Source: Lytechinus pictus
Taxonomy: Eukaryota
Assembly (NCBI RefSeq): GCF_037042905.1
Contig: NC_087252.1
Span: 6,140,001 to 6,204,000, forward strand
Direction of reading: 5' to 3'
DNA: 64,000 nt
Below are positions 7,840-57,496 of this stretch, piece after piece (position 1 is the first letter of the stretch; each line of letters opens with the position of its first letter). The notes beneath the pieces were generated by a model, which did no database searches, was not told the DNA's origin, and saw nothing but the letters and a program-made list of their open reading frames with translations. A program made the translations under genes and the position numbers.

Positions 7840-8564
7840 CAGCACAGTAAGCGACCTTGTTTCTTCTCTTGGTACACCAGCATCCGGGAGCTTTTTCACA
7901 TGCTAAAATCATAATAAAAAAAACAATGAAGAAATAACCATTTATTAAATACTCATTCAATGTACAAGCCTTAATTCATCAATTACCATTCCATTTCAAT
8001 GACATGATTGTCCAAAATAGTACAATTCATAAGCACTTTATTCGCCAGGCTAGTCCCTTTCCTTCACCTCTGAATAGAACATCATTTGCACGAAAATTAT
8101 TGTCAAGAATTGTGAAATATATTTTCAAACGGTGTTTTACACTGTAAGCCAATACAAATTTTCAAAAGAAAACAACCTGTTTTGTGCACGTATTAGATTA
8201 TTGTATTTCCCAATGCTATGAAATTCAGAGTGTGAAATCCAAATGTGTTTATTCATTGCTCTTTGTACAGATATTTCATCGATTTATGATTTGCATATGC
8301 AGTGTAATCATTTCAAGGATCGTGATTATAAAAACTTGCGAAAAACAAATGAAAAAAAAAATTTGAGTTGAAAATGTAAGCTGACTCACGCTTGTATTTG
8401 CTCATTGAATCTCCCCTCTTGTAGGCTAGCCAGTAATCTCGCATTACAGGATCCCTCTTCATGAACTCGACGTCGAAACCCTCATCGCCGTCGGTCTCTT
8501 CGAACTCGAATGCCATGGCAACCACCATCATGGCCATGAAAGCGATCAGTACCTTGGAAACCAT
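7840..8564 (-). CDS. Secreted Cys-rich cationic prepropeptide, copy 1 (coding exons 8564-8390 and 7902-7840; last exon not found in window)
   Basis: Exon 2 (acceptor ttttgaag|ACA ATG at 8567, donor C|GTGAGT at 8390/8389) encodes MVSKVLIAFMAMMVVAMAFEFEETDGDEGFDVEFMKRDPVMRDYWLAYKRGDSMSKYK. A 63-nt phase-1 exon 3 (ttttag|CA...G|GTAAG) continues PCEKAPGCWCTKRRNKVAYCA(G). Exon sizes and phases match the two other copies. Confidence 0.9.
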
Positions 8565-8894
8565 TGTCTTCAAAAGAGAGGTATATATTATTTTGTTTTG
8601 TTTTTTATGTGTATTTTCAATATTTGTTTATAGTTAACTAAGTCAGGAAAAGCTTTCCATCATTATTCCCTTAAACAAAGTCAAACACATCCCTGCATGC
8701 ATACAAGAAATTTTGAAATTGAAGAGCATTATATTATGGTAAAAAAGTAGAAGGTATTGCACCTGATGGTTTTAAAGGTCTACCGAATCTTCTCGTATTA
8801 TCCACAATACCTGTCAAGCCCCCGAAATGTTTAGGATAATTACAACTTAATTTTTGTTAAACATGGACACCACGAAACTTATTGTGCTTAATCA

Positions 8895-9133
8895 CACTGC
8901 AAATACTCTGGTGTTGATTTAACACCAACCCGGAATCTATATATGTCCACACCAGAGAAGTGTTAAACACCAGTTTCGTTTTGGTCTAACACCAGATAGG
9001 TGTTTATACAGCACCAGTTATAATTAAAACAGCATCGGTTTGATTCCAAACTGGTGTTGTTTCAATACTGCTCTGGTGTGGACATATATAGATTCCGGGC
9101 TGGTGTTAAATCAACACCGGAATTTTTGCAGTA
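8895..9133. mobile_element. CACTG-ended palindromic MITE (intron 1 of copy 1)
   Basis: Long inverted arms CACTGCAAATACTCTGGTGTT...AACACCGGAATTTTTGCAGT. A near-identical copy lies at 50012-50253. Confidence 0.85.
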
Positions 9134-53700: not shown

Positions 53701-54584
53701 GAGTCGGAGCATACACACTAAAAAGTGTTGCATGCTGCTTGTTCTTTAGAGGCAGGCGCATGGACATGATGCGGTCGGAATGACCAGTTGGTAGGTTTTC
53801 CAGCTTGGAGGCGATGGAAGATTTGAGCATGAAACCAACGCCAGCTAGACGTCTTTCCGTTGCAGGTTTCCCTGACCAGAAGAGGGTGTATCCAGCGCCC
53901 TGCTCATGTAGGCTGCCTTCTTCTGAGAAGCGGACTTCGCTTAGGGCAGCAATGTCAACATCAAGCCTTGATAGTTCATGCGCGATAAGAGCAGAGCGAC
54001 GTTCCGGTCGGTTGCTGTCAGTTCGGTCAAGCATAGTTCTGATGTTCCAGCATGCTAGTTTCAGTGTTTGTACACCCTTACAGGTGGGTGTGTACCTTTT
54101 TTTCTTTGTTGTTGTTCGACCGCGTGAGAAGATGCCCGTTGACCGCGGCTAGCCAACTGGGTGATGAGAGACGAGCTTTGGTTAGGCCACCTTTTCTAGG
54201 CCCCTCTCCGTGTGGAGCAAGCAGTGCTGTCCCTAGATAAGGCTGCTCGGTCGTTCAGGGTGCTGCCGAATGATGCCGTCGTCTCTGGGTCAACATCAGG
54301 CGACCAATATCCTGAACCGCCTGCATGCAGGATTGGAACTGCGGCTTCCAGTGACATCTTCCACCTGCCGATTTCGCCCCTATCCCGTCGCTACAGGGCT
54401 TGGTAAGTTTGGTGGCGTTTTGGACATGGACATGTCCTTTATGCCTGCGCTATTGAGGTTTAAAGTGGAGTACAGTGTGCGCAGTCCTGGCCCCACCCTT
54501 TACACCCGGGGTTCATCTGCCATAGCCTAGCTAGCTGGGACGGTGACAGTGACGGTGACGGTGACGGTGACGGTCACAGACGGT

Positions 54585-54651
<67 letters not shown>

Positions 54652-57496
54652 GTTCTGACTCTCGCCTTTCAAACAGAGGGTCGTGGGTTCGAATCCTAAC
54701 CATGGCGTGTTTTCCTTCAGCAAGAAATATATCCACACTGTGCTGCACTCGAACCAGGTGAGGTGAATGGGTACCCGGCATGCACTGAGCGCCGGTGATG
54801 GTAGCTCGAGCTAAAGCCGGGGTAATAATAGCAGCGCTTTGTATCCTGAGGCAAAAGGCGCTTTATGAATACAGCTATTATTATTATTATTATATGAATA
54901 TATATAACATGACAAGAGGAGTGGGCTTGGATATGACGTCACAAAATTAACACTTAAAACAAGTTTTCATAACTCTTATCCAATTGGATAGATCTTTGCC
55001 AAACCTTCATCAATAAAATTCTCTTTTTTGTACTGCTTTTTATTGAAACCAACTCTTTGTCAGAATGAACGGAATACCATGTAGAATTACCCTCGCAATT
55101 ATAGTTATTGGCCCATTTTCCAAATGACATCTAATATCCAAAATATTATAAAATCTTCGTTTACTAACATCGGATGCTCACAAAGTAACATATCTGTCTA
55201 ATGAATTGCTTATCCATTTTCGAAAAAAAGTGATTAATTGCATCTGGAATCATCATGCCCCTAGTTCCAGCTACAAACACAAATAGAGGGGTTACTTTAA
55301 TCACCGGTGTCAGTAAAGCTCCACGTCAAAGAACAAATAAAGAAGAATGGAAGAAAAGGTGAATAATGATATAATTTGTTTTAAATTGTGTCAAAATCTA
55401 TCGAAAATTCGATTTTCATTTTTTTTTAATGCAAATATTTCGCCCATTTCCCAGAAAGAAAAACCAGTAAGACCAGTAAGAATTTTTACTGGTTTCCAGT
55501 AGAATTTTACTGGTTTCCAGTATATTTTTACTGGGCCAGTTGAGGTTTAACTGGACCAGTAAAAATCAACTGGAGACCAGTTCCAAAAATTGCATTCCAG
55601 TTGAAGCAATTAGTAATACCAGTTAAATTGTTTTTCATCAAACTGGTGTTTCTGGTCCAATAAATGGTTTCCAGTAGATTTTTACTGGTTTCCAGTATAT
55701 GTTTACTGGACCAGTTGATTTTAAACTGGACCAGTAAAAATCAACTGGACCAGTTAAAATGAACTGGAGACCAATTCAAACAATTGCATTCCAGTTAAAG
55801 CAAAGTAGTAATACCAGTTAAATTGTTTTTCATCAAACTGGTGTTACTGGTCCAATAAATAATGACTTTATTTCAAGTCAGATCATTTGACGAATTATGA
55901 AAAATGAATCTTGCAATTCAAAAAAAGTTATTATCGTTATCGTTGTTATCATCATTCTTCTTATAATTATCATAATTATTGGTATTATGATTATTATGAT
56001 CAGTGTTGTTATCATTCTTATTACTGTTATCATTGTTATCGATATTGTAATTATTATTATTAATATTATCATAATCATCAAGTATTAACATTATCATTAA
56101 AATAATTATTTCCTCTAATTATAATTAAGATCAAAGCAAGATATATTCCTCTGATATAGTAATGTGGTCTAAAGTAATTAATTGTTTGAATTTGAACTGG
56201 TCAAGATCAGTATACCAGTAATTCTGATGATGCTGATCACGTGGTTTACCTCATTTGCATATATCCTATTTCAAAAAGAAAAATCAGGATTTAGAATGGA
56301 ATATACTTGCAATGGCACTCATTGCTGTTTAAAAACTTTCCAAATAAGTGTGTGAACTAATTCACAATGAAAATGTGTAATTTCATATATCACATTTAAA
56401 ATAACTGCCGAAAGATTAAATTACTAACCATCTTTTCCATCACATTTCACTGACCATGGTATATACAAAATCAAAGGCATGTAATAAATTGATCCAGTAA
56501 GACCAGTACGAGGACCAGTTCGACCAGTTCGAGGACCAGTGAGACCAGTAGAAAATACCAGTAAAGACCAGCTTGAATTGGATACCAGTATGAAGTCCAG
56601 TGAGACCAGTAACAACCACCAGAAACAAGACCAGTATAAAATTCCAGTAATTCAAGACCAGTTTAATTTTTAACTGGACCAGTGAAATTTTAACTGGACC
56701 AGTATGACCAGTTAGACCAGTAAACCGATGTTCCAATTTCAACAGTTACCAGTTAAAATTCTACTGGTTTAACTGGTCCAGTAGAACTGTTTTTTCCTTC
56801 TGGGTTATTTCGCTCGTACGCAACTTAAACCCATAATACTCACCAGCACAGTAGGCTACACGGCCTCCCCTCCTCTTGCACCAACAATTAGGAACAGTGG
56901 CACATGCTAAGATCGGGTTGAAGAAAAAAAGAGGAAATTATCAATTCATCATGCAATTAATATCAATTAATTGGTACAACTAGCGCGAGCAGTAGTATAC
57001 CGGCAGGTTTCAGAATCTTCTTTCCCAGACAGTTCCGTGAACATTATACAATTGCAAAGTGTCGTAGCAACAATATGGTACTAACTACGTCTAAATCTTA
57101 AAAAAAGACAAATTAATTTAATGAAATAGCTTTATAACTGTAAGTTTGTGGTTCAGATCATTTGTTTTATACCTTACAAAGATCATCGTATTTGTCTGTA
57201 TTTCGCCTTTATCATGTTTATAAATCGGAAAATAATCATTAATTGATTTAAAAGTAATCACAATGGAAACTTAATTGTTTTCAAATGGGAAAAAAAAACG
57301 TAGAAATGTAACAGGAATCACGTTTGTATTTTTTCATCGTCTGTCCCCTCTTGTAAGCTACAAAGTAATCTTGCATGACGGGATCCCTCTTCATGAACTC
57401 GACGTCGAAATCCTCATCGCCGTCGGTCTCTTCGAACTCGAAGGCCATGGCTACCACCATCATGGCCATGAAAGCAATCAGTACCTTGGAAACCAT
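50719..57496 (-). CDS. Secreted Cys-rich cationic prepropeptide, copy 3 (exons 57496-57322, 56906-56844, 50741-50719; 86 aa)
   Basis: Spliced translation MVSKVLIAFMAMMVVAMAFEFEETDGDEDFDVEFMKRDPVMQDYFVAYKRGQTMKKYK|PCATVPNCWCKRRGGRVAYCA|GAGTGAI*. Exon sizes of 175/63/23 nt are identical to copy 2. AATAAA at 50513-50508. Intron 3 is expanded to 6.1 kb by transposons. Confidence 0.92.
50826..54587 (-). mobile_element. Near full-length RTE-clade LINE (APE endonuclease + reverse transcriptase) with one frameshift
   Basis: Endonuclease motifs WNIRT, LSEVR, LGDFNARVG and IDYVL (ORF 54034-52760). RT motifs YRGITLLS, QCGFR, FVDLTKAFD, GVKQGCVLAP and LFADD, plus a C-terminal CxxC...H finger (52583-50853). 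Frames are joined across a 2-bp AT insertion at about 52809-52812. (GTCACC)n 5' end, short 3' UTR, TA repeats on both flanks. Confidence 0.95.
54588..54648. repeat. (TA)n microsatellite between the LINE 5' end and the SINE
   Basis: Directly visible. Confidence 0.97.
54647..54893 (+). mobile_element. tRNA-derived SINE
   Basis: A-box-like TAGTGGTT, B-box GGTTCGAATCC, central ...CACTCGAACCAGGTGAGGTGAATGGGTACC..., and a tail AAAAGGCGCTTTATGAATAC followed by (ATT)n. Confidence 0.85.
55450..56804. mobile_element. EnSpm/CACTA-like non-autonomous element in intron 3 of copy 3
   Basis: Ends CCCAGAAAGAAAAA / TTTTTTCCTTCTGGG with a 2-bp TT duplication. Dense subterminal ACCAGT/ACTGG repeats and an internal duplication of about 180 bp. 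Confidence 0.75.

Follow-up and report, generated by a model that had tools for sequence, protein, structure and literature searches.

Two gene-encoded families of antimicrobial peptides, the strongylocins and the centrocins, together with protein fragments, make up the repertoire described for sea urchins in the literature examined (PMC4805251, PMC10608444). Strongylocins (SdStrongylocin 1/2, the SpStrongylocins and EeStrongylocin 2) derive from secreted precursors in which a 22-residue signal peptide and a short anionic pro-piece of 16 residues precede a cationic peptide of 5.6–5.8 kDa with six cysteines in three disulfides; centrocins (Sd- and EeCentrocins) are cationic peptides from 119–121-residue prepro-precursors with anionic pro-regions, in which the heavy chain, a helix, and the light chain have one cysteine each, are separated in the precursor by an interchain and form a heterodimer through a single disulfide (PMC4805251). 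In both families, the short anionic pro-pieces are described as neutralising the cationic peptides (PMC10608444). Here, we describe genes of Lytechinus pictus that follow the same general plan, three of which lie in the window, that is, the whole stretch of 64,000 nucleotides analysed (contig NC_087252.1 of assembly GCF_037042905.1, positions 6,140,001 to 6,204,000). Like the strongylocins, they encode a precursor, here predicted to be secreted, with a signal peptide, a short anionic pro-piece and a cationic disulfide peptide, but with four cysteines (3/3 window copies and 52/52 full-length database records) in the 36–41 residues that follow a Lys-Arg (KR) site, which sets them apart from the strongylocins as described. 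Strongylocin identity is ruled out by the cysteine number, no named strongylocin record being returned by the searches, and centrocin identity by the single C-terminal chain with four cysteines and the 86-residue precursor; the preliminary description of this DNA, made from the sequence alone, had set its cysteine framework apart from both families, and the published account agrees (PMC4805251).

The layout also recurs outside the antimicrobial peptides. The putative echinoderm neuropeptide precursors Arnp11, Arnp15a/b, Spnp11 and Spnp15 combine a signal peptide, an acidic spacer, a dibasic site and a C-terminal cysteine-rich peptide, with six cysteines in 47–57 residues, and are described from both starfish and urchin (PMC4772807). 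With four cysteines, at least 27 copies and no named non-echinoid match, the genes described here do not belong with them; since the layout is common to both, it does not by itself decide function.

Gene structure, transcripts and precursors

All three window genes lie on the minus strand and contain intact frames of 86 codons plus stop, with no internal stop, divided by GT-AG introns into coding exons of 175, 63 and 23 bases (exons A, B and C). A six-frame scan located three signal/pro exons and three cysteine exons where the preliminary description had placed them, and in all three copies the raw sequence at the exon edges has AG acceptors, GT donors and phase-1 introns, so that its claim of three minus-strand paralogues with a common exon structure and 86-residue frames stands. 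The last exon of copy 1 was found outside the window, and its frame is thus complete; the 3′ end of this copy is 90.6% identical to that of copy 2 over 298 nt. Self-comparison of the window revealed little similarity among the copies outside the exons, so that they are duplicated genes in their own right and not a repeat produced by assembly. Chance origin is excluded, because exon-A matches reach E 5e-31 and the same exon structure recurs at 23 loci.

Part of copy 2 is present in 11 sequencing runs, none recorded as RNA; contigs from 8 of these (6 guessed to be RNA and 2, X10 and X11, of unrecorded kind) were placed on the genes and covered copies 2 and 3. For copy 2, exons A and B are joined in contigs of 4/4 runs from four studies, exons B and C in 2/4 runs, with a third run joining B to a variant last exon, and a non-coding first exon is joined to exon A in 2/4 runs (34467–35076, X5 and X7), all with GT-AG ends. 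Exon C of this copy is supported by a contig of X1, and its 3′ untranslated region (UTR) carries polyadenylation signals at 31824 and 31783. For copy 3, three of the four runs (X1, X6 and X11) contain the B–C junction, skipping 6102 nt, and two (X1 and X11) the exact A–B junction; neither was found in X3. None of the 28 places in the genome that match a full-length relative is an intronless copy, so that the joined contigs are most plausibly transcripts; a retrocopy as their source was rejected on the same count (0/28). The exon joins predicted for copies 2 and 3 are thereby recovered. Contig depth at copy 3 differed widely across runs of one organism (924 in X1, 2 in X11, no junction in X3), a weak hint of restricted expression. 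Full-length spliced members (P0020 and P0049) are also present in the “merc” source, which we take to have been built from marine plankton transcriptomes; on that assumption, they hint at larval expression.

The encoded precursors agree with the layout given in the preliminary description. Each comprises a putative signal peptide of 18 residues (judged by eye and from a helix at residues 2–19 in the AlphaFold2 model of a relative), a 17-residue pro-piece with 8–9 Asp/Glu, two KR sites 11 residues apart and a mature part of 36 residues with four cysteines and a net charge of +5, +6 and +7 in copies 1, 2 and 3, respectively. The database relatives include 52 full-length records, counted without those that lack the cysteine pattern (mostly read-throughs of exon A); each of the 52 has exactly four cysteines in its mature part, in the framework C-x5..9-C-x-C-x9-C, and a net charge of +2 to +8 (mean 4.7). 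The 44 distinct mature peptides in the database all carry W, Y or L between the second and third cysteines (C2 and C3), Arg two places after C3 (replaced by Lys in window copies 1 and 2) and Gly two places after the fourth cysteine (C4), and none ends in an amidating Gly. The N-terminal motif of the mature part and the 11-mer between the two KR sites have been conserved over a long time. Since the first KR is missing in 16 of the 52 full-length records, the 11-mer is best read as pro-piece, of which it is probably only a part; an obligatory second product was rejected on this basis.

An echinoid family of at least 27 loci

The window genes belong to a much larger set. The L. pictus genome contains at least 27 family loci on five contigs, C8 (12; the contig of the window), C11 (11), C13 (2), C12 and C14, arranged in tandem clusters. 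This number is a lower bound: exon-A searches of the genome gave 21 and then 23 loci, and profile scans of selected stretches added four. The cysteine exon was located at 23 of the 27 loci and was not found within the stretches scanned for L023, L030, L040 and the second copy in L033. At L033 2847–3086, next to an intact C11 gene and downstream of it, lies a degenerate exon A with a damaged signal region that probably represents a pseudogene fragment.

Three indexed protein searches returned 5, 29 and 38 matches, every named one annotated as an “uncharacterized protein”; the three window proteins themselves were not among them. Named relatives come from L. pictus, L. variegatus, Strongylocentrotus purpuratus, Diadema antillarum and D. 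setosum, and there was no named match outside echinoids in these searches. When 1.84 billion representatives were searched exhaustively with a profile, 18 matches at E ≤ 0.001 were obtained; the layout is the same in all of them, and every match to which a name could be given is echinoid. A tree of 34 precursors, from which the window copies were left out and in which three N-termini were over-trimmed, separates two clades with first cysteine loops of 5/9 and 6/7 residues (100/100 support). Diadema, Lytechinus and Strongylocentrotus are present in both clades, indicating that the family diversified before the diadematid–camarodont split. This split occurred more than 200 million years ago. The preliminary description had presented a three-gene cluster of a lineage-restricted family: its gene models, precursor layout and the absence of a named family hold, but the window is one cluster among at least 27 loci on five contigs. 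The family is common to camarodont and diadematid urchins, each of which has both of the deep clades, and so exceeds in size and age what was claimed. Taken together, these results establish a real, spliced and previously unnamed echinoid peptide family of known general design. That it was overlooked is explained by the tiny exons and by records labelled “uncharacterized.”

The mature part changes faster than the remainder of the precursor, yet purifying selection prevails overall. The proportion of nonsynonymous differences (pN) in the cysteine exon and the prepro region was 0.23 versus 0.056 and 0.108 versus 0.013 (close paralogues), corresponding to four- to eightfold faster change in the cysteine exon, and the ratio to the synonymous proportion (pN/pS) in close paralogues was 0.26 and 0.14 for the prepro region and 0.48 and 0.27 for the cysteine exon. 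Mature peptides are strongly conserved between Lytechinus, Strongylocentrotus and Diadema. At L022–L030 (G000:C8 5.37–5.70 Mb), nine near-identical copies of exon A accompany two distinct types of cysteine exon, with synonymous divergence of 0.09 in the prepro region versus 0.40 in the cysteine exon; the lower value in exon A suggests gene conversion there. Short forms, in which the first KR and the beginning of the spacer are missing (Table 1), belong to each of the two deep clades and come from Lytechinus as well as Diadema, implying a repeated or old deletion in the pro-piece.

Promoters, first exons and neighbouring repeats

Table 1. Coordinates of the window genes and related features (positions in the window unless a locus is named).
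Feature	Position	Strand	Content	Basis or remark
Copy 1, exon A	8564–8390	−	Signal peptide, acidic pro-piece, two KR sites, basic mature start	94.7% identical to copy 2
Copy 1, exon B	7902–7840	−	Four cysteines	Sequence, frame
Copy 1, last exon	L021 7057–7035			Outside the window, 2.9 kb before its start
Copy 2, core promoter and non-coding first exon	35076..35287	−	TATA 35176, CCAAT 35241; exon 35076–35180	
Copy 2, exon A	34290..34467	−	Start codon 34464; coding 34464–34290	A–B junction in 4/4 runs
Copy 2, exon B	33062–33000	−	Four cysteines, predicted hairpin	Frame, run contigs
Copy 2, exon C	31779..31974	−	Gly/Ala-rich tail; coding 31974–31952, stop 31954–31952; 3′ UTR	
Copy 3, core promoter and inferred non-coding first exon	58638..58859	−	TATA 58743; exon ~58638–58745	
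Copy 3, exon A	57496–57322	−	Coding	A–B junction in runs X1 and X11
Copy 3, exon B	56906–56844	−	Four cysteines	Frame, run contigs
Copy 3, exon C	50540..50741	−	Coding 50741–50719, stop 50721–50719; 3′ UTR	Preceded by 6.1-kb intron
Short forms (other loci and records)	L034 9811–9978; L051 1986–2171 and 8386–8586; L053 2489–2731			Also P0027–P0029, P0053, P0055, P0056, P0062

The promoter and first-exon regions of copies 2 and 3 are homologous (71% identity over 230 nt), and the first-exon junction of copy 3 was not found in the contigs of the four runs placed on this gene. Neither region has a match near copy 1 within the window (8570–31000, upstream), and the similarity between copies 1 and 2 ends at the boundary of exon A; judging from these alignments, copy 1 may be a promoter-less duplicate, either silent or driven by another promoter.

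Several repeats lie in and around the genes. The last intron of copy 3 houses a near-complete long interspersed nuclear element (LINE; 50853–54148, minus strand, in the same orientation as the gene), presumably of the RTE type, whose two overlapping frames encode endonuclease and reverse-transcriptase domains; a 3.2-kb contig spans the element in X1 and X11. The A–B intron of copy 2 contains a very high-copy repeat (33181–33774) with inverted ends (33181–33380 versus 33773–33574, 78%), probably a miniature inverted-repeat transposable element. A 240-bp palindromic element is present upstream of copy 1 (8894–9132) and downstream of copy 3 (50011–50254) with 90% identity, and arrays of a 107–109-bp repeat unit occupy 47643–48207 and 18907–19302.

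Likeness to known peptides and possible functions

Two AlphaFold2 models were obtained, both depicting the Diadema relative P0002 rather than the window peptides. The model built with 28 precursors (mean predicted local distance difference test score [pLDDT] 61) has helices for the signal peptide and pro-region and strands at residues 66–71 and 74–80, and that built with 25 mature peptides (mean pLDDT 59) has three short strands; both contain the same two-strand hairpin over C2/C3–C4, where pLDDT is about 60–67. Neither model had a Foldseek match at E ≤ 0.001, and the best Z score in the VIA wide search was 2.0; since the models are of low confidence and span 36–86 residues, these fold searches indicate neither likeness nor novelty. 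Pfam contained no family at E ≤ 1 for 4/4 precursors or exons. Weak matches of the mature peptides to LRRNT (2/25) and to a Nab2 zinc finger (1/25), at E ≥ 0.027, were rejected as chance, and no conotoxin or spider-knottin membership emerged, with no toxin family in 25/25 mature peptides or in 4/4 proteins. Sequence searches of PDB with one protein or three profiles gave nothing under E 0.37. In the ESM Atlas, the ten clusters nearest to P0002 consist of toxin precursors from spiders and cone snails, with scores of only 0.76–0.81, in a resource where scores below 0.9 are leads only and one-third of shuffled proteins reach 0.8; the mature part alone had no usable match. Literature searches by six sequence motifs (unrelated papers only among those listed), nine gene identifiers and topics retrieved no description of the family, antimicrobial-peptide and toxin databases lying outside their scope, and no member was found in the supplements of PMC11574069 (one identifier), PMC11688612 and PMC12588293. 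The absence of a recognised family thus extends to Pfam, PDB, fold and literature searches, although a member may already have been mentioned elsewhere, for example in the catalogues of S. purpuratus neuropeptides (Rowe and Elphick 2012; Monroe et al. 2018).

The only PDB sequence retrieved with the cysteine-exon profile was thanatin of Podisus maculiventris (PDB 5xo4; E 0.64 over eight residues), a 21-residue peptide in which a single C11–C18 bridge closes a C-x6-C loop and contacts to LptA are made by Ile8, Tyr10, Asn12, Arg13, Arg14 and Met21 (PMC6235536). The likeness lies in the predicted cationic β-hairpin and in its first strand and turn, aromatic-Cys-x-Arg-Arg-x-Gly-Lys: the 44 database peptides keep an aromatic residue at the Tyr10 position in 41 cases, Cys11 in 44, Arg13 in 44 and Arg14 in 40 (Lys in the other 4). 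However, the C18 position is V, F, I or L in 44/44, Asn12 is kept in 6/44, the position of the buried Ile8 is taken by T, D, G or some other residue, never a large aliphatic one, and Arg13 is replaced by Lys in window copies 1 and 2. Thanatin identity was ruled out given the missing bridge, and any likeness would be convergent, leaving the turn motif as a weak lead. We rate as highly improbable the idea that sea urchins independently evolved a large family of thanatin-like hairpins whose aromatic-Cys-x-Arg-Arg strand docks on the LptA/LptD β-jellyroll of marine Gram-negative bacteria; if true, the family would constitute a natural library of Lpt inhibitors that are braced by disulfides, adapted to seawater and of deuterostome origin. 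Four cysteines are also found in tachyplesin, polyphemusin, gomesin, androctonin and capitellacin, precursor-made cationic peptides with two disulfides, of about 2.5 kDa and consisting of a single hairpin (PMC13001179, PMC10608444). The family differs from these in having C2 and C3 one residue apart, a first loop of 5–9 residues, a basic N-terminal arm and a Gly/Ala-rich tail, and the PDB, Foldseek and VIA searches revealed no sequence or fold match to them.

With moderate confidence, we consider the family to be candidate antimicrobial host-defence peptides released from an acidic pro-piece. Charge, size, pro-piece, predicted hairpin and tandem expansion lean towards host defence, although none is proof; many tandem copies combined with a faster-diverging mature exon are the pattern of defence-effector families. 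So does the γ-core pattern: C-x9-C-x-G is present in 44/44 distinct database mature peptides and in the three window copies and fits the levomeric-1 formula C-X3-9-CXG (PMC9820530). In the proposed mechanism, the precursor, predicted to be secreted, would enter the secretory pathway with its cationic peptide masked and neutralised by the acidic pro-piece. Cleavage by a prohormone convertase at the second KR would then free this peptide, which has 36 residues and probably two disulfides. Its C2–C4 region would fold as a β-hairpin in which the turn is basic and one face aromatic/aliphatic; together with the basic N-terminal arm, the turn might then bind anionic microbial envelopes (lipopolysaccharide, phospholipids), and killing could follow from membrane damage or from reaching an envelope target.

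Several observations weigh against an antimicrobial role. The γ-core is a loose signature (PMC9820530, PMC11395145), and the codon of its Gly is split across the B–C splice site, so that splicing, and not function, may be what keeps this residue constant. When coelomocytes of Echinus esculentus were fractionated under the guidance of bioassays, the peptides purified were, in the account available, centrocins, one strongylocin and another peptide that was partly characterised; this layout is seen in none of them (PMC4805251). The confidence of both structure models is low, the thanatin match is not significant and thanatin was not retrieved with the fuller mature profile. pN/pS is below 1 in all regions, with no sign of positive selection, and the 1 kb upstream of copy 2 has no κB-like site, with one only upstream of copy 3.

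A signal peptide, acidic pro-piece, KR site and disulfide peptide, with a conserved prepro and a variable mature part, are also typical of conotoxins and spider toxins, and the products might be venom peptides used in defence, which would be kept in glands of the pedicellariae or spines and would target the ion channels or membranes of predators and of animals that foul the urchin. This would suit the toxin precursors nearest to P0002 in the ESM Atlas and the unequal contig depth between same-organism runs, with its hint of restricted expression, as well as the many copies in Diadema, whose secondary spines are venomous (PMC11574069); echinoid venom components are, moreover, described as largely unidentified (PMC4280546). 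The named ones (contractin A, peditoxin and lectins) are of other kinds in the same account (PMC4280546). The Atlas scores fall below the 0.9 threshold and are not sustained by the mature part, no conotoxin or spider-toxin Pfam family was matched, and, in place of positive selection, there is old purifying conservation across Lytechinus, Strongylocentrotus and Diadema. Members in the presumably plankton-derived collection also speak against a purely glandular product, and overall we regard venom as unlikely.

The same purifying selection, with the long-conserved mature N-terminal motif and 11-mer, would fit a fixed binding partner, as expected of an echinoid-specific secreted signalling peptide (a neuropeptide, cytokine-like factor or pheromone) with either the 11-mer or the four-cysteine peptide as ligand of a host receptor. 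At least 27 tandem paralogues are atypical of neuropeptides, however, the range is narrow, with no named match outside echinoids, the 11-mer is dispensable in view of the records lacking the first KR, and no mature peptide carries an amidating Gly. Although Arnp11 and Arnp15 precursors share the plan (PMC4772807), supplements of a sea urchin single-nucleus nervous-system atlas contained no motif or gene-identifier match, weak evidence given that they concern a different species, in which identifiers may differ (PMC12588293); a signalling role thus appears quite unlikely. Cationic disulfide hairpins being versatile scaffolds, and nothing tying the genes to immune cells, the peptides might instead serve at surfaces or on gametes, in anti-fouling, non-killing shaping of the microbiome, protease inhibition or binding of anionic glycans; this we find very doubtful, as neither Pfam nor PDB revealed similarity to a protease-inhibitor family.

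The appeal of the family lies in its being new within a familiar design rather than in a new mechanism. Its function is directly testable, the species being laboratory-tractable, the peptides short enough for synthesis and the natural variants numbering dozens. If the peptides were venom components, no family of small-peptide toxins would have been described from echinoids before them, judging by the literature examined. If, as we favour, they act in defence, they would add to the standard model of invertebrate immunity a third effector family, ancient, encoded by at least 27 genes and with a cysteine spacing of its own.

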